A DNA stretch of 45,314 bases from an uncultured Candidatus Micrarchaeota archaeon (lineage in GTDB: Archaea > Micrarchaeota > Micrarchaeia > CAILAH01). Both the position numbers and the translations under genes were made by a program. Location: NCBI GenBank assembly GCA_903832205.1, contig CAILAH010000063.1, positions 1 to 45,314 of the forward strand, written 5' to 3'. Of the stretch, positions 9,063 through 30,082 are shown piece by piece. The notes beneath the pieces were generated by a model that was given only the letters and a program-made list of their open reading frames with translations, was not told the origin of the DNA and ran no database searches. Positions within the stretch are counted from its first letter, which is position 1; every line of letters starts with the position of its first letter.

Positions 9063-10733
9063 ATGGTAAATCTGCAGCCTAAGCTTCTCAGCGATGCAAG
9101 GATGGCTGAACTGGCCAGGGACCTTAAATGCGCTGGCCTCAAGCCAGATGCCAATACCTATGCCAACTATGCAATCATAGCCTCCCTGTTGGCCGCAGCC
9201 CTGCTGGGCTGGCTTCTCATGGGCATGGTAAGCGATGCAATATTCCTGCCCCTCCTTTTTCTGCTGCTCTTTGTTGTGGCGTTCGTCATTTCCCTGCGCG
9301 TCCCAAAAATGGCCGCAAGGAACCGCGCACTAAAGATAGAGGCGGACCTTCCAATCCAGCTGCGCGCACTCTCAACAGAGCTTGCGATAGGCGTCTCATT
9401 TGAGAGCGCCCTGGAATCGGCGGCATCCTTTGGCGATTCCACGCGGCCCATCTTCCGCGGCATCCTAAGCGACCTGAAGAATGGCGTGAGCCCGCCGGAT
9501 GCGATGAACCGCGCCCGCACGCAGGCCGATTCGCGCATGCTGGACAAGGCCCTCTCCCATCTCACATTCCTCTACTCCTATGGGTATGAGGGCAGCGGAT
9601 TGAGCAAGCTTGTGGACGAAATCAGCTCCGAGCACAGGTCGCGCATAAAGGAGTTCGCATCACGCAGCTCCGTATTGGGCGTCATCCTAATCGCGCTCAC
9701 CTCCGTTATCCCGGCGCTCGCAACCACCTACATTCTTGTGGGCTCCTCATTCATGGACATCTCGCTGACACCGGGCTCGGTATATATATTATACATATTC
9801 CTCCTCCCTCTGCTCACACTCTCTTTGCTGCTCGCAATCCGTTTCCTCTCCCCACCAGTTTCAAAGCGGGGTGCGGACTTCCTCTCAAAAGATGAGCTGA
9901 CCAAGTTCACGGTCTTCCTTGGCAGGCACGGGATACAAATGCAGGCATCAAGATTCCTGCTCTACCTTGTCTTCGGCTCACTGCTCATCTCCATGCTCCT
10001 CTTCTTTGCCACATCATCCCCATTCTCATTCCTGTCCCTGCTCATCCCATTCCTGGTTTACGGCGTCTTCCTCTACCTGGACGACCTGCGCATCTCATCC
10101 ATGGAGGACTACATGCCCGATGCGCTCTTTTATGCGGCCTCGCTCCACAGCTTTGGCATGGAGAAGGCCATCAGCGAAATCTCAAACGCAAACTACGGCG
10201 AATTATCCAAGGAGTTCAAGCGCGCGGACAGGCAGGTTAACGCAGGGTTCTCGGTCCGCGTGGCGCTCCTGTCCATAATAGGCCGCAACAAATCCCCGAT
10301 AATAGAGCGCGGCATCTCCTTACTAATTAAAATCCAGGAGGTCGGCGCCTCCCTGGAAAAGGCGCTCAAGAGCACCGCGGAGGACATTCATGACATGTTC
10401 CTGCTTCTCCGCGAGCGTGAGACCATACTCTCGATGCAGAAGTACAACCTGATGCTTGCCTGCGTGCTTGTGCCCGCAATTTTCGGCGCTGTGCTCTCAC
10501 TTGTCTCCTCCCTTGACCTCTCTTATATAGAGACGCTCCTCGCCACTGCCTCTTCCCGCGGCCTGCTCCCAGTGGTGGAGTTCGCTATAAATATTTACTT
10601 GGTTGAATTCTCATTGCTTGCCAGCTTGTTCCTTGCGGATTACAGCGGCTCGTGGAAGCGTTTTGCCGTCTATCTGGTGTTTGTGCTTCCGACGGTATTC
10701 GGTGTTTTCTATGCGGCCCGCTTACTCCTGTGA
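9063..10733 (+). CDS. Type II secretion system F-domain membrane protein (TadB/TadC-like pilus platform, two F domains)
   Basis: Two repeats of TM helices followed by an F-like domain (IEADLPIQLRALSTELAIGVSFESAL; MEDYMPDALFYAAS...YGELSKEF). Start placed at ATG 9063. Confidence 0.82.
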   Translation: MVNLQPKLLSDARMAELARDLKCAGLKPDANTYANYAIIASLLAAALLGWLLMGMVSDAIFLPLLFLLLFVVAFVISLRVPKMAARNRALKIEADLPIQLRALSTELAIGVSFESALESAASFGDSTRPIFRGILSDLKNGVSPPDAMNRARTQADSRMLDKALSHLTFLYSYGYEGSGLSKLVDEISSEHRSRIKEFASRSSVLGVILIALTSVIPALATTYILVGSSFMDISLTPGSVYILYIFLLPLLTLSLLLAIRFLSPPVSKRGADFLSKDELTKFTVFLGRHGIQMQASRFLLYLVFGSLLISMLLFFATSSPFSFLSLLIPFLVYGVFLYLDDLRISSMEDYMPDALFYAASLHSFGMEKAISEISNANYGELSKEFKRADRQVNAGFSVRVALLSIIGRNKSPIIERGISLLIKIQEVGASLEKALKSTAEDIHDMFLLLRERETILSMQKYNLMLACVLVPAIFGAVLSLVSSLDLSYIETLLATASSRGLLPVVEFAINIYLVEFSLLASLFLADYSGSWKRFAVYLVFVLPTVFGVFYAARLLL

Positions 10734-17294: not shown

Positions 17295-17795
17295 TTACTT
17301 CTTTTTCTTTCTCGCTCTCTCCATTTCTTCGAATGTTATTCTAGACGCCTTCTCCTCAGCAGGCATAGTAGTAACACCCTTTAAGGCGTTCTCAGAAGTG
17401 ATACTTCCGCCCTTTCCTGCCATGACTTGCTTAAGCGCGCCTTTACCCTCCCTAATGGACTTGATTATTTCCGTTCCCTGAACCTTCTTTCTAATCATTT
17501 CTTTATTGCTCACGGTAATGGTCTCTCCGGTTTTAAACTCAGTCACCTTGACAGGGATATCTTTTCTGCCCACTTTAATTTCGCCTGCCTCCTTCTCGCT
17601 AAAACCCAGGTGCTTAACCCTCCCCTTAATTGCGCCGGCTTCCTTCTCGCTGAAATCTGCCTGCTTAACCCTCACTTCAGTTGATTTGGCCTCCTTTTCA
17701 GTGAATTTTGCCTCTTTAATCCTTCCCTTAATTGCCTCGGGCTCATTGAATTTTGCTTCAAATACTGGTTTCTTCTTAAATTTCTCTTCACCCAT
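17295..17795 (-). CDS. Hypothetical Lys/Glu-rich protein with four repeats of about 17 aa
   Basis: Repeats EAKFNEPEA-IKGRIK, EAKFTEKEAKSTEVRVK, QADFSEKEAGAIKGRVK, HLGFSEKEAGEIKVGRK; upstream GGTGGT and TTTAAA. Confidence 0.7.
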   Translation of the reverse strand: MGEEKFKKKPVFEAKFNEPEAIKGRIKEAKFTEKEAKSTEVRVKQADFSEKEAGAIKGRVKHLGFSEKEAGEIKVGRKDIPVKVTEFKTGETITVSNKEMIRKKVQGTEIIKSIREGKGALKQVMAGKGGSITSENALKGVTTMPAEEKASRITFEEMERARKKKK

Positions 17796-19916: not shown

Positions 19917-20021
19917 TGACAGCCCAAGGGGGAGCGCCGCATTTTCGCAGCGGCGAAAAGCGACGCCTTTTGGCTCTCAGCCAAAAGAGCGCCCCCTTAG
20001 TCCGTCACCGCCCAAACCCCC
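19917..20021. repeat. Palindromic element A, free intergenic copy
   Basis: Matches 27799-27903 at 100 of 105 nt. Terminal imperfect inverted repeat TGACAGCCCAAGGGGG...CCCCCTTAGTCCGTCA encloses two hairpins, followed by a CCGCCCAAACCCCC tail. Confidence 0.92.
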
Positions 20022-20026
20022 CGTCA

Positions 20027-21877
20027 TTACATGTTACGTATGACCGGAATCCCAAGGATGTGCAGGCACGCCTCAAGGGCCTCGGCATATTTTTTCACGA
20101 GCCTTTTCCTGCTCTCGCTCACGCCCTTTTCCTCGCCGATAACCCTGCAGGCCGCATAAAACGAGTTGAATGCTGAGCACAGCTTTATTGCATAATCTGC
20201 CATGTTCTGCGGCGCATAGGTGTCCACCGCCCTGGCGCACACCTCGGGGAATTTTGCAATCTCCCGTATGAGCTGCAGCTCGCTTTTCTCCGTGAACACC
20301 AATTTTCCGTCCCAGTAATCGTCAATTGTTTCCTTGTCCAGGATGTGCACCGCGCGCGCATATGCGTACTGCAGGTAGGGGCCGCTGTCGCCCTCAAAGC
20401 TGAGCGCCTTTTCCCAGTCGAACACCAGCTCCTTCTCCGGGCCGAGCCTGATGAACGAGTACCTGATTGCGCTAATCCCGACAGCCTCGCTTATGCCTTT
20501 CTTCTCCTCCTCGCCGTAATCCCTGAACTTATCGCTGATGAGCGCGTGCGCCCTGCTCACACTCTCTTCCACCAGCTCATCCGCTGAGAATCCAATCCAA
20601 GTCCCCTTCCTGCCAGATAACTTTTTCCTATGAGAGGTCCTTTCCGCCTTGAGCGTCGCATGCCCGTATGAGATGTGCCTGTAATTGTTCGCCTCCTCTT
20701 TGAACCCGGCCATATCCAATGAAACTTTTATGACGTTCTGCGGGTACTCCTGCTCGACACCAATAATATTGACGACCTTTTTCGCATTGCTGAAGTTTGC
20801 CTGCTGCCCCTTTGCATTGCTCGTGAAAAGCAGCGCGCCGTTCTTCTGCATTGAGAACTTGTCAAACAGCAATTCATCCTTAATGATGCCCAATTTCCAC
20901 ATCTGGAACGCAATATCTTTTGCCGTATAGGTCGCAACGCCGTTCGCCCTCACCAGCACCTTGTCCGCATCCGTGAGATGCTTGAACATGGGGTGCCCGC
21001 TCAGCTCAATGATCTTGCACCCCGCATACTTGCTGTCCCCGCCGGCAGTTTTGAGTATTCCCTTCTTCTCCAGTAAGTCAAGCCCGTTCCTCATTAGCTT
21101 CGCGTGCACGATATCGCTTTCCCACACGAGCACGTTCTGAAATATGTTCAATCTCTGCAACGTAATCTTTTGCGCCTCAACGCACTGCACAGCCATCTCC
21201 CTGCCCATGCGCGATACCGTCTCGTCGCCCTCCTCCAGCTTCCTCATCAGCTCTTCCACTTCCCTCTTTACATCCGCGCTCTCCTCATACATCCTGGCGG
21301 CTTCAACATACTTCTCGCCGAGCCACATATCATATTTCTTCCCCTTCTCAACCGTGGCACCGCGCATGCACGCCCACAGGCTCTGTGCCACCTGCAGCCC
21401 CAGGTCGTCGATGTAGTCCATCCTCACCACATCAAAGCCGCCATAGTCAAGCAGGTTGGCAATGCAGTCGCCTATAATCCCATTCCTCAGATGCCCGATG
21501 TGCAGCGGCTTGTTCGGGTTAACAGAAGGGTACTCGACAATGACCTTAACGCCGTTCTTTGCAAACCTGTGCTCATACTTCCCTACAAAATCCGTATAGA
21601 ATTTTTCAGTGAGCGTGAAATTGATATAGCCGTTCGCATTCTTCATCGTATAATGCCCGCTCTCCAAATGCGGCATAATCTTCTCCGCAATCTCTGCGGG
21701 CTTTGCCTTTGCATCCTTTGCAACCCTGAACGCTATCCTGCACTCAACATCAACGCCCTCGACTCCCCCGTCCTGCACAAGGTTGAGCACCTCCTCCTTT
21801 GCAATCGCTATCCCGTACTCCTTCTCAAGCGCCACGCTTGCCTTCCCTGAAATTTCCTTCTTGATTTCAATAATCAT
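20027..21877 (-). CDS. argS: Arginine--tRNA ligase
   Basis: VEYPSVNPNKPLHIGHLRN (HIGH), DDLGLQ, TYTAKDIA, LSGRKG, FEGDSGPYLQYAYARA, FNSFY. Confidence 0.97.
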   Translation of the reverse strand: MIIEIKKEISGKASVALEKEYGIAIAKEEVLNLVQDGGVEGVDVECRIAFRVAKDAKAKPAEIAEKIMPHLESGHYTMKNANGYINFTLTEKFYTDFVGKYEHRFAKNGVKVIVEYPSVNPNKPLHIGHLRNGIIGDCIANLLDYGGFDVVRMDYIDDLGLQVAQSLWACMRGATVEKGKKYDMWLGEKYVEAARMYEESADVKREVEELMRKLEEGDETVSRMGREMAVQCVEAQKITLQRLNIFQNVLVWESDIVHAKLMRNGLDLLEKKGILKTAGGDSKYAGCKIIELSGHPMFKHLTDADKVLVRANGVATYTAKDIAFQMWKLGIIKDELLFDKFSMQKNGALLFTSNAKGQQANFSNAKKVVNIIGVEQEYPQNVIKVSLDMAGFKEEANNYRHISYGHATLKAERTSHRKKLSGRKGTWIGFSADELVEESVSRAHALISDKFRDYGEEEKKGISEAVGISAIRYSFIRLGPEKELVFDWEKALSFEGDSGPYLQYAYARAVHILDKETIDDYWDGKLVFTEKSELQLIREIAKFPEVCARAVDTYAPQNMADYAIKLCSAFNSFYAACRVIGEEKGVSESRKRLVKKYAEALEACLHILGIPVIRNM

Positions 21878-21886
21878 TTGAGCACC

Positions 21887-21990
21887 TCACTGATGGGGAA
21901 CCTAGGTTCCCCCTGTGCATCTTCGCCGTGCGAAGATGATGCATCATTCGGCTCCGCCGAATGCATGTCGTGTGGTCTACACCCCTTCCT
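21887..21990. repeat. Palindromic element B (long form), free copy between ogg and argS
   Basis: Matches 27461-27564 at 101 of 104 nt; CACTGATG-hairpins-TCGTGTGGTCTACACC. Confidence 0.92.
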
Positions 21991-22020
21991 ATTTACAATG
22001 TATGGTCCACACGTTTCCAT

Positions 22021-22650
22021 TTATTTTAACACCTTGTTTGTCTTGAAATACCACAGGTACATATCTAATTTGCCGTTAGGCATTTTAGCCTTTTTCGCAA
22101 TGCCTTTTAATATACCCTCAATTTCCATATATCTTTGCCTGTTCATGGAAGTGAAATGCCCAATCAATCCATACTCCCTCATGAGCCTTAATACATGCAA
22201 ATCGATAATCGCAACGTCCTTTCCCACACCTACATTCCTGAGGAAATGGCTGGCCTCCTTGTATCCCATGCCTTTCACGTTCTGCACGAGCCACTCGCGC
22301 GCCTCATCAACCTCTGTAAAATCCATAATTATGTCTTTTAATTTCCCGTCGAACCTTCTCGCGCCGATGATGAATTCCGCCCTCCTGTTGTAAAACCTGG
22401 AGCCCGCAGCCCTCAATTCAGCAGCGAGCTTTTTCTCAGGCGTTTTTGCAAACCCCTCATAGCCGAGCGCATTCTGCACGCGCATCCCCATCTCCGCGGA
22501 TGTATTTGCAGTTAGTATGCAGAAGCACAGCTCGGAAAACCATTTCTTCTCCCCTGCGTTAAGCATCCCCTGAAAATCCTCCCACCTATCTTTTATTGCT
22601 TTTATTGTTTCATCGTCAGTGCCAGCAATCCTTTTAAGCAGTGGGTCCAT
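22021..22650 (-). CDS. ogg: 8-oxoguanine DNA glycosylase/AP lyase (HhH-GPD, Ogg2 type)
   Basis: FSELCFCILTAN, RFYNRRA, REWLVQNVKGMGYKEASHFLRNVG, AIIDLH, LDMYLWY, C-terminal VLK. Confidence 0.93.
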   Translation of the reverse strand: MDPLLKRIAGTDDETIKAIKDRWEDFQGMLNAGEKKWFSELCFCILTANTSAEMGMRVQNALGYEGFAKTPEKKLAAELRAAGSRFYNRRAEFIIGARRFDGKLKDIIMDFTEVDEAREWLVQNVKGMGYKEASHFLRNVGVGKDVAIIDLHVLRLMREYGLIGHFTSMNRQRYMEIEGILKGIAKKAKMPNGKLDMYLWYFKTNKVLK

Positions 22651-22709
22651 CGTAAGCTTATGCCTCAAAACCTTTTTAAAGCGGAATTAAGAGAATACTT
22701 ACGACACAA

Positions 22710-23423
22710 ATGAAAATGCTCAAGCCCAAAAGGCAGACAATCCGCAGGCATTCTGCCTGGGACGAGTTCGACCGCAGGAAAACAAGAAGGGAGCGCAATA
22801 TTGACGAGTACCTGTGCATTGTCAACCACTTACTGTTCGATTCGGTCCGCAAGTCTTATGCTGCGGGTGTAAGGGAGTCGCTGGCTGAGGGGGCAAACGT
22901 CGATGCCAAGGGAGATTATAACCTGACACCGCTCATGATTGCTGCGCAGCGTGGCGATGTCCTGATGTCAGAGCTTCTCCTTTCATTCAATGCAAACATA
23001 AATCAGGGCGACAAGTACGGCCTCAGCGCATTGATGTTCGCTGCGATGAAGAACCGCCTCGATGTTGCCCTGCAGCTTCTGAAAAAAGGCGCATACGTGA
23101 ATGCGGAGAGCGAGGACGGCAACACTGCGCTCATCTTTGCCGCCATTGAGGGCAACGTGAGCATGGCGCGGCTCCTCATCAGCAATGGCGCCTCAGTAAA
23201 CCAGGTCAACGATGATAAGGTTACGACCATAATGCTCTCGTCCTACAAAGGCCACAGGGGCATGGTCCTGCTGCTTGTGGAGAGCGGGGCGGACGTGAAC
23301 CTATTGGATAACGAGGGAAATTCCGCACTGGCATACGCGCAGCGAAAACACCATTTGGAAATCATGAATATACTAATCAATGCGGGCGCACTCTACGTCG
23401 TCAAAAAATCCGGAAAGGCGTGA
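22710..23423 (+). CDS. Ankyrin repeat protein with a basic N-terminal extension
   Basis: About five ankyrin repeats (TPLMIAA, SALMFAA, TALIFAA, TTIMLSS, SALAYA; L...GA.vN). Confidence 0.92.
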   Translation: MKMLKPKRQTIRRHSAWDEFDRRKTRRERNIDEYLCIVNHLLFDSVRKSYAAGVRESLAEGANVDAKGDYNLTPLMIAAQRGDVLMSELLLSFNANINQGDKYGLSALMFAAMKNRLDVALQLLKKGAYVNAESEDGNTALIFAAIEGNVSMARLLISNGASVNQVNDDKVTTIMLSSYKGHRGMVLLLVESGADVNLLDNEGNSALAYAQRKHHLEIMNILINAGALYVVKKSGKA

Positions 23424-23425
23424 AA

Positions 23426-23887
23426 TTATTCTTCCCTCTGCGCCACGCCAATGTCTTTTACCCTTTTCTTTATTTCCACTTCGCTTGGCTTAAGCCTGAA
23501 CGCCAGCGGCACTCCTGTCTTTCGGTCCATGGAATCGTCGGCATTGCGCCTCAATTCACTCAGCATGGACCGCCTGAGCTCTGTCTTTATTTCGGTCCCG
23601 TCACTTCTAATTATGGTGCCGTCCCTGAGCATTTCCCTCAGTGCGGCGTATTGCTCTGGCCCTGACTTGAGGTTCAGGGGCACGGGCTTCCCGTTCTCAT
23701 AAAATTCCTGCTTGGGAACATTATTGGTTTTTATCGTATAAGCAGCATTCCCCCACGTGAGCGTAAACTCGTGGGCATAGTTAACCTGCTCTTTTTCCTT
23801 CTCCTTATATACCTGCGATCCCTTGTCTACCATTTCTATCCCCAATAACAATTGGGTATATGGCTTTAAATATTTTCCGAAATCCAT
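23426..23887 (-). CDS. Hypothetical protein
   Basis: 153-aa ORF filling the gap 20 bp downstream of gatE on the same strand; no recognisable motif. Confidence 0.6.
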   Translation of the reverse strand: MDFGKYLKPYTQLLLGIEMVDKGSQVYKEKEKEQVNYAHEFTLTWGNAAYTIKTNNVPKQEFYENGKPVPLNLKSGPEQYAALREMLRDGTIIRSDGTEIKTELRRSMLSELRRNADDSMDRKTGVPLAFRLKPSEVEIKKRVKDIGVAQREE

Positions 23888-23907
23888 GTTTTTTAATCAG
23901 ACGCGAA

Positions 23908-25680
23908 TTATTTCTTCCCAATCAGCTGCATGAGTTCCTCAGCCTCAATCCTCAGCCTGTATTTTGCAAGTATCTTTTGCGCATCCCCGCCCTCTTCTTC
24001 AATTATTTTCTTGAGTGCTGCTCCTGTAATCCTCCCAAGCCCCTTTTCCTTGATTATCACATCAATCCCGGCTTTTGGGTTTTTGCACAATTCTCTGATA
24101 AGCTCCTCAATCGCCTTTTTTGTTATCCTGTTATGCGCATACTGCTGCAGCACCTCAATTAACCGTTCGTCATCAATCCTGTCAACGGGAATCCCTTCCC
24201 TTGAAATCGTCTTGAGCGAGCTCACGAACGTAACCGCGGCAACCTTGGCGTCAACGCCCATCCCAACCGCCCTGTTATATGCGCCAAGATGCGGCGAGCG
24301 CAGCAGCTGCGGCGCCAAATCCTTATTTGTCTGCCCCTCCAGCTCGCGCAGCACATCCTCTGGGTTTCTCGGAGCATATTTCTCCGATTCCCTAATCAAA
24401 TCCTCTGTTACGATGATGGGCTCCACATCCGTTTCAGGGTACATCCTTGCGCCAGTGGGCATGGGCCTCATGAACTGGCTCTCCCCGTTCTTGAGCGGCT
24501 TTCTTGTCTCGCTGGGGATCTTTTTCATGTACGCCCTCTCAACAACGCTCTGGAACGCGAGCCTCATCTTCTCGTCAAAATCTCCAATCAGTATTGCGTA
24601 TGAGCTTCTCAGGCCGGCCTTCAATTCCTTCTCAACCGCATTCTTGTCAACGCCGTATTTCTCGAAATCCTCATCACCGTGAATCATCCCGCCGAACCCA
24701 AACGTCCTTGCATAGTCCGCAAGCTCCGTCCCGTATCTCCTGTTCTCGTACAATTCAAAGCCGAGCATTCCCTTCAATCCCGGAAGCAGTATGCCAATTA
24801 CGCGCGCCCCATTTCCTATCGCTTTTGGAATGAATCCCTTACCGCTCTTGAACAGCTCGGTCAAATCAACATAATCCGGCTCTTCAGGGTTTTTCGGCTT
24901 TTCCTCCGCAGGAATTTTCCTGATGAGCTCAATCAGCCTCTCCTGCCTCAGCACTTCCCTGTTCACGATCAGCGGGATGTCATCGAGCTCCTGCACGCCC
25001 TTGATTTCACAGCGCACACCGCCGTCCACAGAAATATTCATGTCCTGCCTTATTGTCCCGATTCCTCTCGCAGCCATCCCGGTCATGCGGAGCATCATCC
25101 CGATTGATTCGGCAACCTCGCGCGCGTGCTCCCCGTCCTTAATGTCGGGCGCGGTGGCAATCTCTATGAGTGGCACACCCAATCTGTCAAGCGAAAACCT
25201 CGCGCTCCCCTTTTCCTCCAAAATCCCTGCGCTTTCCTCCTCAACGAACAGCGCCTGGATTCCTACCTTTCCACCTTTGCAATCTAAGTGCCCGCCAAGC
25301 CCCACAAGCCCGGACCTTTGGAACCCGGATGTGTTGCTCCCGTCAATCACAATCTTCCTCATGAAGAAAATCTCATCCGCGATTGCCATGCGCATGTGCC
25401 TTGCAACCGCAACTGCAACCTCCAGCGCAGCAACATCCGCATCGTGGGGCGGCTCCTCATCTGTCTCCACAAGGCATGAGTTGTCATATACAGAATACAC
25501 AAAATTTGCGCTCTTGAGCTCCTCCCTTACGGCGGCAATGTCCTTCTCGCCCATCTCGCTCTTCACCGCGTGCAGTCTCCGTTTTATCTCGCCTTTCACA
25601 ATGCCCGCAGAATGGGATGGGCACCTGCAGAACAGCTTGCCCGTGTTGAGCCTCTGGTGTATTTCAATCCCGACCTTCAC
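23908..25680 (-). CDS. gatE: Glutamyl-tRNA(Gln) amidotransferase subunit E
   Basis: KVGIEIHQRL..GKLFC.C, DEEPPH, RKIVIDGSNTSGFQRS, LDRLGVPLIEIAT, RGIGTIRQD, GARMYPETD; GTG start. Confidence 0.95.
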   Translation of the reverse strand: MKVGIEIHQRLNTGKLFCRCPSHSAGIVKGEIKRRLHAVKSEMGEKDIAAVREELKSANFVYSVYDNSCLVETDEEPPHDADVAALEVAVAVARHMRMAIADEIFFMRKIVIDGSNTSGFQRSGLVGLGGHLDCKGGKVGIQALFVEEESAGILEEKGSARFSLDRLGVPLIEIATAPDIKDGEHAREVAESIGMMLRMTGMAARGIGTIRQDMNISVDGGVRCEIKGVQELDDIPLIVNREVLRQERLIELIRKIPAEEKPKNPEEPDYVDLTELFKSGKGFIPKAIGNGARVIGILLPGLKGMLGFELYENRRYGTELADYARTFGFGGMIHGDEDFEKYGVDKNAVEKELKAGLRSSYAILIGDFDEKMRLAFQSVVERAYMKKIPSETRKPLKNGESQFMRPMPTGARMYPETDVEPIIVTEDLIRESEKYAPRNPEDVLRELEGQTNKDLAPQLLRSPHLGAYNRAVGMGVDAKVAAVTFVSSLKTISREGIPVDRIDDERLIEVLQQYAHNRITKKAIEELIRELCKNPKAGIDVIIKEKGLGRITGAALKKIIEEEGGDAQKILAKYRLRIEAEELMQLIGKK

Positions 25681-25732
25681 TCCTTATTCTCCTCGCAAAA
25701 TGCTTTAAATATTACGCATTATTAATACATCC

Positions 25733-26359
25733 ATGTCTTCAGACCAGCTCATACCGACTCGCATGGAGCTCATGAAAATCAAGGACAGGAAGAAGCTTGC
25801 CGAGAGGGGGCACAAACTGCTTAAGCAGAAGCGTGACGCCCTGATAATCGAATTCTTCAAGATATATAACCGCGCCAGCGATATGAGGGAGAGGCTGAAC
25901 GGGGAGCTCTACAAGGCATACATGCAGATGGCCACTGTTGAGATTCGCCACGGCCCGCTAATGCTCAACGCCGCCGCTGAAGGCATGCCCGAGCCCTATG
26001 TCATAGAGGTCAGGGAAAGGAACGTGATGGGAGTCCGCATACCCGAAGTGAAGAAGGAAAAGAAGGAAACCGGCTATGCCTACAGCGTCATGACGACCGA
26101 TTACAGCATGGATGAGACCGTTGCCGCGTTCCAGAAAGTGTTAACGATGATTCTTGAGCTTGCGGAGACCGAAAATGCGCTCAAGAGGATAATCAAGGAC
26201 ATTGAGAAGACCAAGAGGCGCGTCAACGCGCTCGAGTACATTCTTATCCCGAGGCTTGAGGGGCAGGGAAAGCTGATTACGCTCAGGCTTGAGGAGATAG
26301 AAAGGGAAAGCTTCTTCGTGCTCAAGCAGCTGAAAAGAAAGGCAAACGCCAACGGCTAA
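25733..26359 (+). CDS. atpD: A/V-type ATP synthase subunit D
   Basis: PTRMEL, RGHKLLKQKRDAL, NVMGVRIP, IEKTKRRVNALE..LIP, LEEIERESF. Confidence 0.95.
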   Translation: MSSDQLIPTRMELMKIKDRKKLAERGHKLLKQKRDALIIEFFKIYNRASDMRERLNGELYKAYMQMATVEIRHGPLMLNAAAEGMPEPYVIEVRERNVMGVRIPEVKKEKKETGYAYSVMTTDYSMDETVAAFQKVLTMILELAETENALKRIIKDIEKTKRRVNALEYILIPRLEGQGKLITLRLEEIERESFFVLKQLKRKANANG

Positions 26360-26415
26360 TTCTGTTGCATTATCTATTTTTCAACCGCACAGGAGAATAA
26401 AACAGAAAGAAATAG

Positions 26416-27432
26416 TTAGCCTGTCCTGGCCCTCTGGTAGCATTGGTTCTGCCAGTCCCTGTAGAGCGGGTCGGTTATCTTGTCGCATTCTGACCTTAGC
26501 GTCTCATTATCAACTATGCTGTCCGCGAAGCAGCCCCAGATATAGCCGGACTCATTTATGTCCTGGCAGATGGACGGCATCAGGTTAATCTGCGCAACCC
26601 TCACCTTGCAGTATGCAATGTCCTTTGCAGCGGAAGCAAACGTGCCGCTATATTCGCAGAGGCTCGGGTCTTTGAGTTTTCCCGCAACATCGATAAGACA
26701 GTCCTTCCTTGTCTTGTAGGAGGTTATGGGCAGGCACTCGGAATAATTGCCGCTTGAATAGGCGACACTCGACTGGCAGTCCTCCCTGTAGATTTGGTCA
26801 CTTATCTGGTTGCATATGTTTCCATTCGTTCCCGTAATCCTCGCGAACGTCTTTATGCACTCTTTCCTGGAGGCGTCATATTGCTCATAAACATAGCACC
26901 TGTAGGGGTCCATCAGCAGTATTGAATTGCACGCGCTCTTGTCCATGCTTCCGGAAGTAATCGCATCACACGCCTTGCTGCTGTTGGTCTTGAATGCGAA
27001 TTTCAGCAGGCATTCGCTGTTTGTGCCGCAGTAAAACAAGTCATTTGAGGCAAGCGCCTTGCACAATGACTGGTCCGGGTCGTTGGCGCACATTGAGAAC
27101 CCGACGCTGATCTGGCAGTTGTGCCTCATCTCATCATTCACAATCCCGCTACAGTTAGTCGCAGTGAAATAACAGGAGTCCTTAAGTGAGGCATCCTCAA
27201 TATAGGAGCATAGTGACTTGTTCAGCAGGCAGGCATCCACATCCGCCCTCGTAAGCCCCCTGCACGGCCCGACCACAATCTCCTTTGTTACGTTTTCCAC
27301 TGTTTGGTTCTCCGTCAGGTTTTCCGTCACATTTGGCTTTGGCGGCTTTGGCGGCGTGGGCGGCTCAAAGCATCCGGCCATGAACGAAAACAACAATACT
27401 GCGATAATGAACACGAAAATAGCTCCCTTCAT
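26416..27432 (-). CDS. Cys-repeat lipoprotein (C-x2-I-x6/8-C units)
   Basis: Lipobox-like FMAGC, Pro-rich linker, repeats such as CSYIEDASLKDSC, CNQISDQIYREDC, CLPITSYKTRKDC; many N-x-T sequons. Confidence 0.78.
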   Translation of the reverse strand: MKGAIFVFIIAVLLFSFMAGCFEPPTPPKPPKPNVTENLTENQTVENVTKEIVVGPCRGLTRADVDACLLNKSLCSYIEDASLKDSCYFTATNCSGIVNDEMRHNCQISVGFSMCANDPDQSLCKALASNDLFYCGTNSECLLKFAFKTNSSKACDAITSGSMDKSACNSILLMDPYRCYVYEQYDASRKECIKTFARITGTNGNICNQISDQIYREDCQSSVAYSSGNYSECLPITSYKTRKDCLIDVAGKLKDPSLCEYSGTFASAAKDIAYCKVRVAQINLMPSICQDINESGYIWGCFADSIVDNETLRSECDKITDPLYRDWQNQCYQRARTG

Positions 27433-27460
27433 GCCTTACCCTTCGTTAATAATATTTAAA

Positions 27461-27564
27461 TCACTGATGGGGAACCCAGGTTCCCCCCGTGCATCTTCGC
27501 CGTGCGAAGATGATGCATCATTCGGCTCCGCCGAATGCATGTCGTGTGGTCTACACCCCCTCCT
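27461..27564. repeat. Palindromic element B (long form), free copy upstream of tRNA-Glu
   Basis: Near-identical to 21887-21990; bracketed by AATATTTAAAT at 27451-27461 and 27568-27578. Confidence 0.92.
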
Positions 27565-27646
27565 GCGAATATTTAAATTTGTTATCTACTCAAAGAACGT
27601 CATAGGGCTCCTGTAGTCTAGCCCGGTTAAGGACATTGGCCTCTCA

Positions 27647-27777
27647 AACACTGATGGAAGGGGGCACATCCCCCTTCCCTCGTGTGGCGTCAACCTATGG
27701 TTGACGACTTGCACAAACCTCGTTTGTGCAATGGTCTACACCTAACCCCCTGCGGGTTTGGGTTGTACTAAAGAGAA
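27647..27777 (+). other. tRNA-Glu intron 1 (position 37/38, 131 nt) containing an element B variant and module C
   Basis: Relaxed BHB: C32-U35 pairs with AGAG 27772-27775, bulge AA^C. CACTGATG begins at 27649 and TGGTCTACACC ends at 27742. Confidence 0.85.
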
Positions 27778-27798
27778 CGCCGAAAGCCCGGGTTCGAA

Positions 27799-27927
27799 TC
27801 TCAGCCCAAGGGGGAGCGCCGCATTTTCGCAGCGGCGAAAAGCGACACCTTTTGGCTCTCAGCCAAAAGAGCGCCCCCTTAGTCCGAGACCGCCCAAACC
27901 CCCAATGGTTTGGTGGTATTTCGAAAA
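27799..27927 (+). other. tRNA-Glu intron 2 (T-loop position 59/60, 129 nt) made of element A plus a module C hairpin
   Basis: UUCG (54-57) pairs with CGAA 27922-27925, with bulges AA^U on both sides. 27799-27903 repeats 19917-20021. Confidence 0.85.
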
Positions 27928-27987
27928 TCCCGGCAGGAGCTTTCTTATTCTTTTATTTCTTGCTGCAGATACCCTAGTGGTGAGCCT

Positions 27988-28293
27988 ATGGGTATAATAC
28001 AAGAGTTCAAGGATTTCCTGAACGAGTACAAGGTTGTTGGCCTTGCCGTCGCTTTCATAATGGGCGCCGCCACAACAACACTCGTGCAGTCGCTTGTCAA
28101 CAGCATCATAATGCCAGTTATCGGCATATTCCTGCCCGCGGGTGACTGGCAAACGGCAACGATAATGGTTGGCTCGGCAAAAATAGTGTGGGGCGCATTC
28201 GTTGCGGCACTGATTAACTTCATCATCATCGCGGTCGTGATTTTCCTGATTGCGAAGATAATGCTTAAGGAAGATAAGGTCTCGAAGAAATAA
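27988..28293 (+). CDS. mscL: Large-conductance mechanosensitive channel (short form)
   Basis: IQEFKDFL...VVGLAVAFIMG.A...LVQSLVNSIIMP, WGAFVAALINFIIIA; SD GGTGA before ATG 27988. Confidence 0.93.
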   Translation: MGIIQEFKDFLNEYKVVGLAVAFIMGAATTTLVQSLVNSIIMPVIGIFLPAGDWQTATIMVGSAKIVWGAFVAALINFIIIAVVIFLIAKIMLKEDKVSKK

Positions 28294-28354
28294 GGCATTT
28301 TTCTTGCCCTTTTTTTTGATTTTCTTTATTAATTTCACGCGAGATTATAGCCTT

Positions 28355-29719
28355 ATGGTAAAAGTCGTTTCCACTTACGGCCCAATGCTTGAGCAGAAAG
28401 GCCTTCTAGAATCGGTGTGCACCGAAAGCGACGTCCTGCGCATTAACATCTCGCACACCACCATTGAGCAGGGCATACACCAGTATAATCTTCTCAGAAA
28501 ATTCGGCAAGCCCATCATGATAGATACCTGCGGGCCCGAGGTGCGCATCCGCACAAAGGAGAAATTCCTGCTCAAAAAAGGCCAGCACATAAAGATAGGC
28601 AGGCCAAACTCATCGGCGAAGATATGCCTGGACCAGGACATCTATCCTCACATGAAGGCCGGTGAGATGATTTATTTCGACGATGGAATGGTGGCAGTTT
28701 CGCTGGTATCAAAATCGAAGGGCCTGATGGAGTTCCGCACGCACGAAGATGTTGAGATAAGGGACCATATGGGCGTCAACATGAAGGGGCGCTCGTTCAA
28801 CTTTCCCGCGCTCAGGAAATTCGACATTAGCGTGCTTCGCTCCACTGCGCCCACATTTGTCGCGCTCTCATTTACCAGGACGGCAGCGGACATAAAGGAG
28901 GCGCGCAGGCACACCGATGCAAAAATAATCGCGAAGATAGAGAATTGGGACGGCGTGAAGAACATAGGATCGATAATGGATGAAGCGGACGGTGTCATGA
29001 TTGCCCGTGGCGACCTGGGCGTTGAGGTCCCGGCCGAAGAGGTTCCCATAATACAAAAGGAGATAATCGAGCTTGCAAACAACCACGCAAAGCCCAGCAT
29101 AGTCGCAACCCAGGTGCTATACTCAATGGTTGAGCACCCGGTCCCCACGCGCGCGGAGGTGAGCGACATCGCAAACGCAGTGCTTGACGGCACCGATGCA
29201 ATCCTGCTTTCCAACGAGACCGCAGTGGGAAAATATCCGCTGCAGGCGGTACGCGAGGTGAAGAAGGTGGGCAAGCGTATCGCATCCCACGTCTGCACGA
29301 AAATCCAGGGAAATTTGCACATTAAATCCCTTGACACGGCATCTGAAATTCTCAGCAACACCATCTACTCAATAGCATCCAAAAGGGAAATCGACAAGAT
29401 AGTCGTGATAACGCGCTCCGGCTACAACGCGCACATGCTTTCCAGGTTCAAGCTGCCCAAGCCGCTGCTTGCGATAACCACTGAAGAAAAGGTCGCGCTT
29501 GAGCTCAACCTGCTCTACAATGTCACCCCAGTCAAGTGGGAAGCCCTGCCGAAGAAGAACGTCGTGCCAAGGGCTGCCCTATTCTGCCTTGAGCACGGGC
29601 TCATAGATGAGACAGACACGGTGGTGTTCACCGCGGCGGTGAGGACGCAGAAGAAGGACATAATGAACCTTATCGAAGTGCACGACATGAAGGACATGCT
29701 GCAGTATCTCGAGTTTTGA
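28355..29719 (+). CDS. pyk: Pyruvate kinase
   Basis: STYGP, RINISH, DTCGPEVR, IIAKIEN, DGVMIARGDLGVE, ATQVLYSM, PTRAEVSDIANAVLDGTDAILLSNETAVGKYP. Confidence 0.96.
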   Translation: MVKVVSTYGPMLEQKGLLESVCTESDVLRINISHTTIEQGIHQYNLLRKFGKPIMIDTCGPEVRIRTKEKFLLKKGQHIKIGRPNSSAKICLDQDIYPHMKAGEMIYFDDGMVAVSLVSKSKGLMEFRTHEDVEIRDHMGVNMKGRSFNFPALRKFDISVLRSTAPTFVALSFTRTAADIKEARRHTDAKIIAKIENWDGVKNIGSIMDEADGVMIARGDLGVEVPAEEVPIIQKEIIELANNHAKPSIVATQVLYSMVEHPVPTRAEVSDIANAVLDGTDAILLSNETAVGKYPLQAVREVKKVGKRIASHVCTKIQGNLHIKSLDTASEILSNTIYSIASKREIDKIVVITRSGYNAHMLSRFKLPKPLLAITTEEKVALELNLLYNVTPVKWEALPKKNVVPRAALFCLEHGLIDETDTVVFTAAVRTQKKDIMNLIEVHDMKDMLQYLEF

Positions 29720-29766
29720 GCGAAAAACAAATATTAAAAAGCTATTACAACCGAAGATATATTCGT

Positions 29767-29996
29767 GCCGAGGTGGCAGAATCCGGTAATGCGTACGCCT
29801 TGAGTATGGGTGAGGGAGAAGCGTCTCCCTCTCCCATAAGACCCAACTCCCTCTCAAGAGGGTTTTGGACTCCTGTGGATTGAAATTCTCCTTCGTATGA
29901 GGGGGAGGTGTAGACCACACGAGGAGGGGGATACTTCCCCCTCATCAGTGAGCGTATGTCCGCAAGGACTCAGGAGTTCAAATCTCCTCCTCGGCG
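29767..29996 (+). tRNA. tRNA-Ser(UGA) with a 146-nt intron; exons 29767-29804 and 29951-29996
   Basis: Acceptor stem GCCGAGG/CCTCGGC with G73, anticodon stem TACGC/GCGTA with loop CT-TGA-GA, variable arm GTCC-GCAA-GGAC, T arm AGGAG-TTCAAAT-CTCCT; T-rich trailer. Confidence 0.9.
29805..29950 (+). other. tRNA-Ser intron (37/38) containing module C and an inverted short element B (29907-29950)
   Basis: GGTGTAGACCACACGAGG-hairpin-CATCAGTG is the reverse complement of the element B core. The boundary is ambiguous by 1 nt. Confidence 0.8.
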
Positions 29997-30014
29997 CTTT
30001 CTTTTTTAATTTTT

Positions 30015-30082
30015 CGCCTCGTCGGTTTTGCCTTCGGCAAAATCTCTGCAGCAAAGAGCTGCAGATTTCCTCCTCGGCGCTT
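30015..30082. repeat. Palindromic element D whose right arm duplicates the tRNA-Ser 3' end
   Basis: CGCCTCGTCGG...CCTCCTCGGCG encloses hairpins TTTTGCC-TTC-GGCAAAA and TCTGCAGC-AAAGA-GCTGCAGA. TCCTCCTCGGCGCTT occurs at both 29985-29999 and 30068-30082. Confidence 0.75.

Follow-up and report, generated by a model that had tools for sequence, protein, structure and literature searches.

A probable family of small hairpin-forming mobile elements associated with tRNA introns in a Micrarchaeota lineage

The DNA analysed here (the window) is the whole 45,314-nt contig CAILAH010000063.1, contig C63 of the metagenome-assembled genome (MAG) GCA_903832205.1 of an uncultured Candidatus Micrarchaeota archaeon, which comprises 1.11 Mb in 70 contigs and is 82% complete. 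It carries a tRNA-Glu(CUC) gene and a tRNA-Ser(UGA) gene whose three inserts contain copies of two short palindromic elements, A and B, that lie also free between neighbouring genes (Table 1). The studied genome is designated G000 and its congener G001. Family f1 comprises nine genomes, G000 included, whose assemblies are mostly incomplete (61-93%). G001 was compared whole and four other relatives were compared over syntenic stretches; coding DNA of G000 and G001 is only ~65-84% identical.

Both tRNA genes were missed by ARAGORN with default settings and by Rfam, and an Rfam scan of the window at E up to 1 returned a single, chance-level TPP match. The tRNA-Ser(UGA) gene was found by ARAGORN with introns allowed, and tRNA-Glu(CUC) was recovered in the same way or by removal of the inserts in a script. 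Taking out the inserts restores proper tRNAs, tRNA-Glu(ctc) and tRNA-Ser(tga), in agreement with the initial annotation, which had announced three introns of 129, 131 and 146 nt; the order of the two tRNA-Glu introns had to be inverted, the 131-nt intron following the anticodon and the 129-nt one lying in the T-loop. Glu intron 1 is occupied from its nt 3, as announced, by a long copy of B (27649-27742, covariance-model E 2.4e-14), followed by a tail hairpin (module C) and by an anticodon-complementary end (GAGA opposite UCUC). Glu intron 2 contains a copy of A (27802-27903) and then the second arm of a C-type hairpin, its end TTCGAAAAT being able to pair with the T-loop; A begins at nt 1-3 of this intron and not strictly at nt 1 as had been claimed. 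In the Ser intron, which opens with module D plus C and closes with an inverted B, three neighbouring boundary choices equally give tRNA-Ser(tga), and the proposed coincidence of B with the last intron nucleotide holds under one of four equally valid boundaries. Module C, described initially as present in all three introns, corresponds to a type of hairpin that they have in common (CCCAA-CCCC-loop-GGG-TTGG), and not to a near-identical repeat. Module D opens introns of at least four further G000 tRNA genes (C24:20789, C38:25601, C38:35263 and C39:3279).

The splice boundaries can slide by 1-3 nt. The 4-bp junction helices are readable from the sequence (UUGA/UCAG in the Ser intron and UCUC/GAGA in Glu intron 1) and the T-loop introns end in UGAAAAU, opposite UUCAA. 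Minimum free energy (MFE) folds at the junctions give relaxed motifs, not the strict 3-4-3 bulge-helix-bulge (BHB). The inserts are predicted to be spliced tRNA introns of the BHB or bulge-helix-loop (BHL) type, located at position 37/38 or at a non-canonical site. The 3' exon of tRNA-Ser is duplicated, ATTTCCTCCTCGGCGC at 30065-30080 repeating ATCTCCTCCTCGGCGC at 29982-29997, and the alternative 3' end was found.

Element B is non-coding and dispersed. Its free copies at 21887-21990 and 27461-27564 share 97% identity over 104 nt, and its 3' motif is found inverted at 29900-29922, inside the tRNA-Ser intron. The window holds three occurrences of GTGTGGTCTACACC with at most one mismatch, where 100 shuffles give an expectation of 0.00. 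The covariance model identifies 21 copies of B in G000 (17 by pattern and BLAST searches), with lengths of 44-154 nt. The core unit of ~60 nt is composed of the invariant CACTGATG(R), a G/C-rich hairpin, the invariant CCTCGTGTGGTCTACACC and a C-rich tail. In most short copies the tail TCCCCCTCAT is the inverted repeat of the 5' TGATGAGGGGGA, so that the ends of B can pair. The end pair reads CACTGATG ... GGTCTACACC; the terminal inverted repeats are imperfect and variable filler follows the 3' end. Twenty-six columns are invariant among 14 aligned copies from three genomes. All 8/8 pairs of hairpin 1 are changed on both sides and 97.9% of its cells are paired in 39 copies, a figure that rests on an alignment fitted to the covariance model. 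Ten G000 copies are short (44-48 nt core) and the rest carry a two-hairpin insert of ~50 nt, placed between the hairpins in the window copies, C13 and C25, in the loop of hairpin 1 in C37, and in the loop of hairpin 2 in C41. Free copy 1 has such a nested insert in its core (21888-21983), followed by ~39 nt of tail or filler. Two candidate RNA identities were rejected for B: a C/D-box small RNA, since CUGAUGA/G is present without a CUGA D box, both orientations occur and there is no Rfam match, and a hammerhead, since CUGAUGA is present without GAAA and, again, in both orientations.

Element A is built like B, with an outer G5/C5 stem and two inner hairpins. The free copy (19920-20021) and the copy of the tRNA-Glu T-loop intron (27802-27903) are 97% identical over 102 nt. 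Free A has an outer stem AAGGGGGAGCGC/GCGCCCCCTT around the two inner hairpins, then the tail CCGCCCAAACCCCCC. A TGA precedes this copy, and the stop end of a 616-aa open reading frame (ORF), 20027-21877(-), is 5 nt away. G000 has five copies of A, ~105 nt long and 97-100% identical, two of them with an extra two-hairpin insert; such inserts are thus present or absent among copies of both A and B, in a nested manner. Full-length A is confined to G000, and intron 1 of tRNA-Glu in the family genome G007 is the bare A outer hairpin. All elements are far more stably folded than shuffled sequences (z -3.1 to -7.4). The initial observation that A and B occur both free and within introns was confirmed, with 97% identity between free and intron copies.

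Further copies and presence/absence polymorphism had been named in the initial annotation as the test of its proposal, together with a covariance-model scan of the genome and its relatives. Both are abundant: besides the 21 B and 5 A of G000 and many differences among relatives, matches to the B model are found in seven of the eight other family f1 genomes (2-10 copies each). Outside the family a match was obtained in one of 142 genomes of the class, with a marginal E of 9.9e-4, and the B core pattern gave 0 matches in IMG/VR viral contigs. Because relatives have empty sites where G000 has duplication-flanked copies (Table 1), B is mobile DNA, integrated at the DNA level, and the description of the modules as non-coding, multi-copy and mobile stands. 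At least seven copies of B are flanked by duplications, and G006 has a B at the tRNA junction equivalent to C38:51805 with a 21-bp duplication; the lengths around B are 11, 11, 12, ~15, ~20, ~20, 21 and 30 bp. In the duplication-flanked copies, CACTGATG directly abuts one repeat and the other end is accompanied by 0-40 nt of unrelated filler. These sites show that new copies of B enter DNA at staggered breaks with the CACTGATG end joined precisely, the other end with variable filler and 11-30 bp of target duplicated. At free copy 1 the right duplication, ATTTTAACACCT, now codes for the last codons and stop of ORF 22021-22668(-).

Table 1. Features of the window and further duplication-flanked copies of B in G000 (positions without a contig code refer to the window; E, covariance-model value)
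Feature	Position	Strand	Remarks
Free A copy	19917..20026	+	fold z -4.3
Left target duplication of free B copy 1	21876..21887	.	ATTTGAGCACCT; single undivided site in G006
Free B copy 1, long form	21888..22022	+	E 9.7e-6; duplication ATTTGAGCACCT / ATTTTAACACCT, 12 bp; site empty in G006
Right target duplication of free B copy 1	22023..22034	.	ATTTTAACACCT; 10/12 identical
Left target duplication of free B copy 2	27451..27461	.	AATATTTAAAT, 11 bp
Free B copy 2, long form	27462..27567	+	ends 39 nt upstream of tRNA-Glu; site empty in G001, G002 and G006 (one copy of AATATTTAAAT, no element)
Right target duplication of free B copy 2	27568..27578	.	AATATTTAAAT, 11 bp
tRNA-Glu(CUC) gene	27607..27941	+	two introns
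Glu intron 1	27647..27777	+	after anticodon, 131 nt
Glu intron 2	27800..27928	+	T-loop, 129 nt
tRNA-Ser(UGA) gene	29767..29997	+	class II, long variable arm
Ser intron	29805..29950	+	146 nt; removal leaves 85-nt tRNA-Ser(tga)
Module D plus C at Ser intron start	29806..29872	+	TATGGGT-hairpin-CCCATAAGACCCAA-hairpin-TTGG
Short B, inverted	29893..29950	-	E 1.3e-18; CACTGATG end = last 8 nt of Ser intron
Hairpin insert and second tRNA-Ser 3' exon copy	29998..30080	+	insert of 67 nt (29998-30064), then the exon copy
Filled B site	C24:25898		duplication ~15 bp; empty in G001
Filled B site	C38:51805		duplication CCCTGGCCCAT, 11 bp, tRNA 3' end; empty in G001
Filled B site	C60:7990		duplication ~20 bp, tRNA-Glu(UUC) 3' end plus trailer; empty in G001
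B copy	C25		duplication ~20 bp of tRNA 3' end
B copy	C37		duplication 30 bp of tRNA 3' end

The duplications adjacent to tRNA genes begin at tRNA positions ~59-65, whatever their length, and selection for an intact tRNA alone does not account for this start. These direct repeats begin within the T-arm and extend beyond the tRNA 3' end, as is typical of archaeal integrated elements, and a 1.8-kb recombinase-bearing element disrupts a tRNA-Thr gene of Caldiarchaeum (PMC3293823). The tRNA-adjacent copies could accordingly be seen as decayed integrase-type elements, the duplicated tRNA 3' ends being their att sites, a reading that we consider highly improbable: near-identical B lie beside different tRNAs, B is found also at non-tRNA sites with unrelated duplications, just 60-170 nt separate the repeats, Phage_integrase has no match in G000, and no full-length integrated element with B at an att junction was seen.

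B is strongly linked to stable-RNA genes, its invariant CACTGATG end lying at the splice site. In G000, 13 of the 21 copies are in or within 120 nt of 38 tRNA loci, a space that makes up 11% of non-coding DNA (binomial P ~4e-8, the copies not being fully independent), and six copies lie in introns, of five tRNA genes. The link is found also in seven relatives, where 23 of 25 matches are in or within 104 nt of tRNA loci, 19 of them inside the locus. In 13 tRNA genes of these relatives the first, same-orientation B starts 35-40 nt from the tRNA 5' end, which is the canonical intron site. Intron copies of G000 lie at one of the two ends of the intron, either at its first 2-3 nt or no more than 7 nt from its 3' end. 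Both orientations occur, in introns and downstream of genes; the inverted copies are at or within 7 nt of intron 3' ends (tRNA-Ser and C10:25448) or just downstream of tRNA genes. Two other stable-RNA genes are concerned. B begins at the last nucleotides of the G000 signal recognition particle (SRP) RNA gene (C26:51466-51735, L014:1233-1502; 93.8 bits, just under the gathering score of 96.5), at a position empty in G001. The archaeal 23S rRNA gene on metagenome contig Ga0129302_1051054 (L219, minus strand, ~1508-1601) has a 94-nt insertion led by B at GAAGCAGCCAT|CCTCTAAGC, a sequence uninterrupted in the 23S gene of G001. B is not scattered through neutral intron interiors, its invariant end marking the exon junction; the initial view of introns as neutral safe havens is not supported for an element whose CACTGATG end abuts the exon at set positions.

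This regular placement raises the question of whether B is a functional RNA or DNA signal under selection, such as an aid at splice sites, a signal for processing or termination, or the binding site of a protein, that spread with tRNA segments. The invariant motifs and the co-varying hairpin are in line with such a role, as are the fixed sense-orientation place at the intron start in the 13 tRNA genes of the relatives, the positions right after RNA genes and stop codons, and the pairing of the B ends, which could bring splice sites together. We hold it to be very unlikely, since B occurs in both orientations in introns and downstream of genes, orthologous tRNAs manage without it, target duplications flank it at unrelated sites, and neither an Rfam family match nor a D box or hammerhead GAAA accompanies its C-box-like CUGAUGA.

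The tRNA genes of G000 are extensively interrupted. Thirty of 35 ARAGORN-validated loci have at least one insert (26 in the anticodon loop, 15 in the T-loop and 11 in both), often of 100-200 nt. Several intron sequences recur across different G000 tRNA genes and positions. A ~49-nt T-loop intron (CACCTCTTTTGGGATGCC; CACCTCTTTTGGGATGCCTAAAGAGCTGCACCAG...) is near-unchanged in the three G000 genes at C37:4368-4539, C41:5522-5643 and C60:7831-7955, whose acceptor ends differ, and is found also in a G001 tRNA (C2:50012-50132); a fourth G000 gene, at C37:32475-32796, has a close variant of it. The intron GCACTTTCTTTGCGC lies at the canonical site of one tRNA, whereas two other tRNAs have it in the T-loop. 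Intron content differs also between genomes: no two of five genomes have the same intron in tRNA-Ser(UGA), G001 having none at 37/38 and a T-loop insert, and the introns of tRNA-Glu(CUC) differ in each of five. In tRNA-Arg(GCG), which is intronless in G000, the introns of G001, G002 and G004 are led by B and that of G003 measures 43 nt. The 21 best-matched G000/G001 tRNA pairs show 13 presence/absence differences at 42 sites (4 anticodon-loop, 9 T-loop), in pairs that share at least 41/43 exon positions and were matched by similarity, not synteny. The tRNA-Ser intron of G006 has N runs (L030, G006:C9, ~9310-9420) and its content is only partly readable.

Genes with duplicated 3' exons are common, being found in the window (29982-30080), at C10:~330-440 and in four G001 genes with 2-3-fold tandem 3'-exon units (C2:556-808, C3:54792-55243, C4:78948-79181 and C6:28458-28798). 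The extra exons, in one or two copies, start from the T-loop/T-stem border and comprise the T-stem 3' strand, the acceptor 3' strand and the discriminator; they are separated by hairpin-rich spacers of 50-90 nt. Such tandem arrays, with periods of ~75-82 nt, and the G001 3'-exon units repeated 2-3 times without B could reflect hairpin-induced replication or repair errors (template switching, snap-back synthesis, slipped duplication) that copy palindromes into breaks with no dedicated enzyme. The mosaic, nested architecture, the variable duplications and filler, and the fact that no transposase was found would fit this view as well. It is unlikely as an account of B: 26 nucleotides stay invariant in five genera around a hairpin that does change, one end is always precisely joined, and at tRNA site 37/38 B keeps a strict position and orientation. 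Together, the invariant nucleotides, the precise end and the placement at 37/38 argue for specific recognition.

The splicing endonuclease EndA of G000 (C13:34003-35172, L003:877-2049) is a 390-aa, three-unit protein with two catalytic-domain matches. It is of the epsilon2 type, its residues 13-390 matching PDB 4fz2 with E 1e-120; the 4fz2 chain is presumably the epsilon2 tRNA intron endonuclease of ARMAN-2. A homologue is found in G001 in two frames at the start of contig C7, and relatives of the G000 endonuclease are nearly all titled Candidatus Micrarchaeota or Micrarchaeia. The ARMAN-2 enzyme has a broad specificity, cutting strict and relaxed motifs, and ARMAN-2 tRNAs are highly disrupted, including at 59/60 (PMC3239211).

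We favour the interpretation, with a probability of about 0.7, that A, B and the nested two-hairpin inserts form a single, lineage-specific family of mobile elements, small, non-coding and able to form hairpins, whose home is the endonuclease-spliced tRNA introns, and at least once a 23S rRNA gene, of one Micrarchaeota family. Insertions in tRNA genes would survive only where the broad-specificity epsilon2 endonuclease can excise them, which would explain the location of B at 37/38 or the T-loop site, or else immediately downstream of the gene, the duplication restoring the tRNA 3' end in this last case. Such insertions may seed or remodel introns, and T-loop introns may derive from 3'-exon duplications whose start lies at tRNA positions ~59-65. 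As to the enzyme that moves B, an unrecognised or trans-acting DNA transposase is plausible, if short of even odds; reverse transcription of excised introns and other routes are both less probable, though to be considered.

We tentatively extend the proposal, as a possibility that we find rather less likely than not to be correct, to B elements being archaeal 'introners' whose insertion into tRNA or rRNA genes directly creates spliced introns. An insertion at 37/38 would give a canonical intron with the element end first, and one in the T-arm would lead to a 59/60 T-loop intron. The T-arm insertion would duplicate the 3' exon, positions 29982-30080 of the window being a putative living intermediate; the proximal copy would then decay, and the insert plus the old exon would become the 59/60 intron.

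A candidate for the reverse transcription route is encoded by G000, a 426-aa reverse transcriptase (RT) at C26:45058-46335(-) (L006:1255-2535:-). Its best NCBIfam match is a group II intron RT/maturase (1e-44, below cut-off). Directly upstream (L006:2491-2651(-)) is an RT-16 RNA motif (RF03019; 73 bits, which exceeds the gathering score), and no group II intron RNA was matched in the Rfam scan of locus L006. The gene is absent from G001 (tblastn) and from all eight relatives, making G000 its sole carrier in the nine family genomes. Excised intron RNA could be reverse-transcribed to its exact 5' end and the cDNA captured at nicks or recombined into tRNA genes. This would accord with the precise end of the free copies, which is the 5' splice-site end in introns, and with the variability of the other end, filler and duplications. 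It would accord also with G000 having the RT together with the most B copies, some far from validated tRNA loci, and the A expansion, and with the precise absence of the tRNA-Arg(GCG) intron from G000. We regard this scenario, the reintegration of excised introns that the initial annotation had named as its alternative, as doubtful, though still to be considered. The enzyme resembles group-II/retron-type RTs only below cut-offs and the RT-16 motif directly upstream suggests a self-contained RT-ncRNA (non-coding RNA) unit; B insertions with flanking duplications are found also in G001 and G006, in which the search for an RT was negative; the scenario does not predict inverted copies or nested two-hairpin inserts; and the correlation between RT and B copies rests on one genome.

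A number of observations weigh against our favoured interpretation of a mobile family. The enzymes sought do not follow B: Y1_Tnp (PF01797) is found in 0/9 family f1 genomes, control genomes being detected; Cas1 in 1/9, only G007; DDE_Tnp_1 in 2/9, only G003 and G004; and OrfB_IS605 in 2/9, the last three being all absent from G000 and G001. In G000, Phage_integrase (PF00589) has no match and TnpB domains gave nothing above cut-off. None of the transposase families tested is common to the B-bearing genomes, in assemblies mostly 61-93% complete. The lead of the initial annotation towards IS200/IS605 and RAYT enzymes is not supported, in view of both the missing Y1_Tnp and the duplications around the insertions. 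HUH single-strand transposition is not expected to leave target duplications. No longer element bounded by B ends exists in G000, where no motif pair spans more than ~160 nt; each exact GTGGTCTACACC has a CACTGATG partner within ~160 nt, the sole exception being the interrupted C41 copy. The duplications vary in length from 11 to 30 bp and filler occurs frequently, neither of which is typical of a single DDE transposase. Duplications were not found at the B copies of C68, C13 and C41, nor at the free A copies, where they were looked for; the intron copies of B have no flanking duplication either, intron 3' ends complementing the exon loop and not being repeats. For tRNA-Arg(GCG), with introns in four relatives, loss in G000 and not gain in G001 is the simpler reading. 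The isotype calls of ARAGORN are unreliable for intron-bearing tRNA genes.

Apart from these elements, the window has a 51-nt unit in four tandem copies at 17563-17760, probably a repeat within a coding region. N runs lie next to an ORF of G003 (L032, G003:C5, ~985-1085 in locus coordinates). Contigs of four DNA sequencing runs (depth ~2-4, short pieces) gave joints with sides of 20-27 nt that probably belong to other loci or organisms.

The family offers what earlier data sets were without, a recognisable element with invariant ends. Its copies lie at the splice junctions of many tRNA genes and in a 23S rRNA gene, ectopic copies have duplications and empty sites that prove DNA-level integration, and tRNA genes with duplicated 3' exons resemble intermediates. 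Intron gain, loss and remodelling become directly testable, also by biochemistry with the epsilon2 endonuclease that is already crystallised. The elements provide a tangible way into the long-standing problem of the arrival and spread of tRNA introns in archaea. If the introner proposal were true, it would be the first mechanistic route of archaeal tRNA intron gain. We found no report of hairpin repeats common to archaeal tRNA introns and intergenic DNA in a literature search that left most subscription journals outside.

Miniature inverted-repeat transposable elements (MITEs) and the bacterial REP/BIME, RPE and Correia-type repeats are small, non-coding, multi-copy, hairpin-forming sequences often found at gene ends. 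The Micrarchaeota elements resemble them by target duplications at some sites, nested insertions and intergenic positions at gene ends, and have inverted-repeat ends that are imperfect. They differ from these repeats by the variable length of the duplications (11-30 bp) and their strict link to tRNA splice sites, and in that neither an autonomous partner with the same ends nor a RAYT was found. Elements derived from IS200/IS605 insert without target duplication, unlike the at least seven duplication-flanked copies of B. Introner-like elements of eukaryotes create spliceosomal introns, many of them near-identical, and their insertion is tolerated as host splicing removes them; here, splicing would be the work of proteins alone, a BHB endonuclease with a ligase, and it is RNA genes of an archaeon that receive the elements, of ~60-150 nt. 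The double-hairpin elements and repetitive hairpin-forming elements of fungal and sponge mitochondria are ~50-nt two-hairpin units, at times nested, of intergenic DNA, introns and rRNA genes, whereas B and A belong to an archaeal chromosome, are associated with BHB introns and comprise copies with target duplications. Integrase-type integrated elements share the tRNA 3'-end duplications, but PF00589 is absent from G000. The question of intron arrival was addressed in a 2026 preprint on Asgard archaea that tested copying, mobile elements and reverse transcription and states that "how they arrive remains open" (10.64898/2026.10.13.758758).

The closest host is ARMAN-2 (Micrarchaeum), of the same phylum and endonuclease type, with introns at 37/38 and at 59/60 in the T-loop (PMC3239211). 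The introns assayed there measure 13-25 nt and the available text of that account describes no repeat elements, whereas those reported here are of 30-200 nt and made from repeated modules. The closest phenomenon is the 'intron transposition' of Thermoproteales, in which similar introns are found in different tRNA genes by a mechanism given as unknown (PMC4090602). Both cases have near-identical introns in different tRNA genes, at canonical and T-loop positions, in a host with a broad-specificity splicing endonuclease. The present host differs in being a DPANN archaeon (Micrarchaeota) with an epsilon2 enzyme, and its intron modules are found elsewhere than in tRNA genes too, between target duplications and at sites whose orthologues are empty. 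The presence of similar introns across tRNA genes is therefore already known; what is new is that intron modules are also mobile outside tRNA genes.

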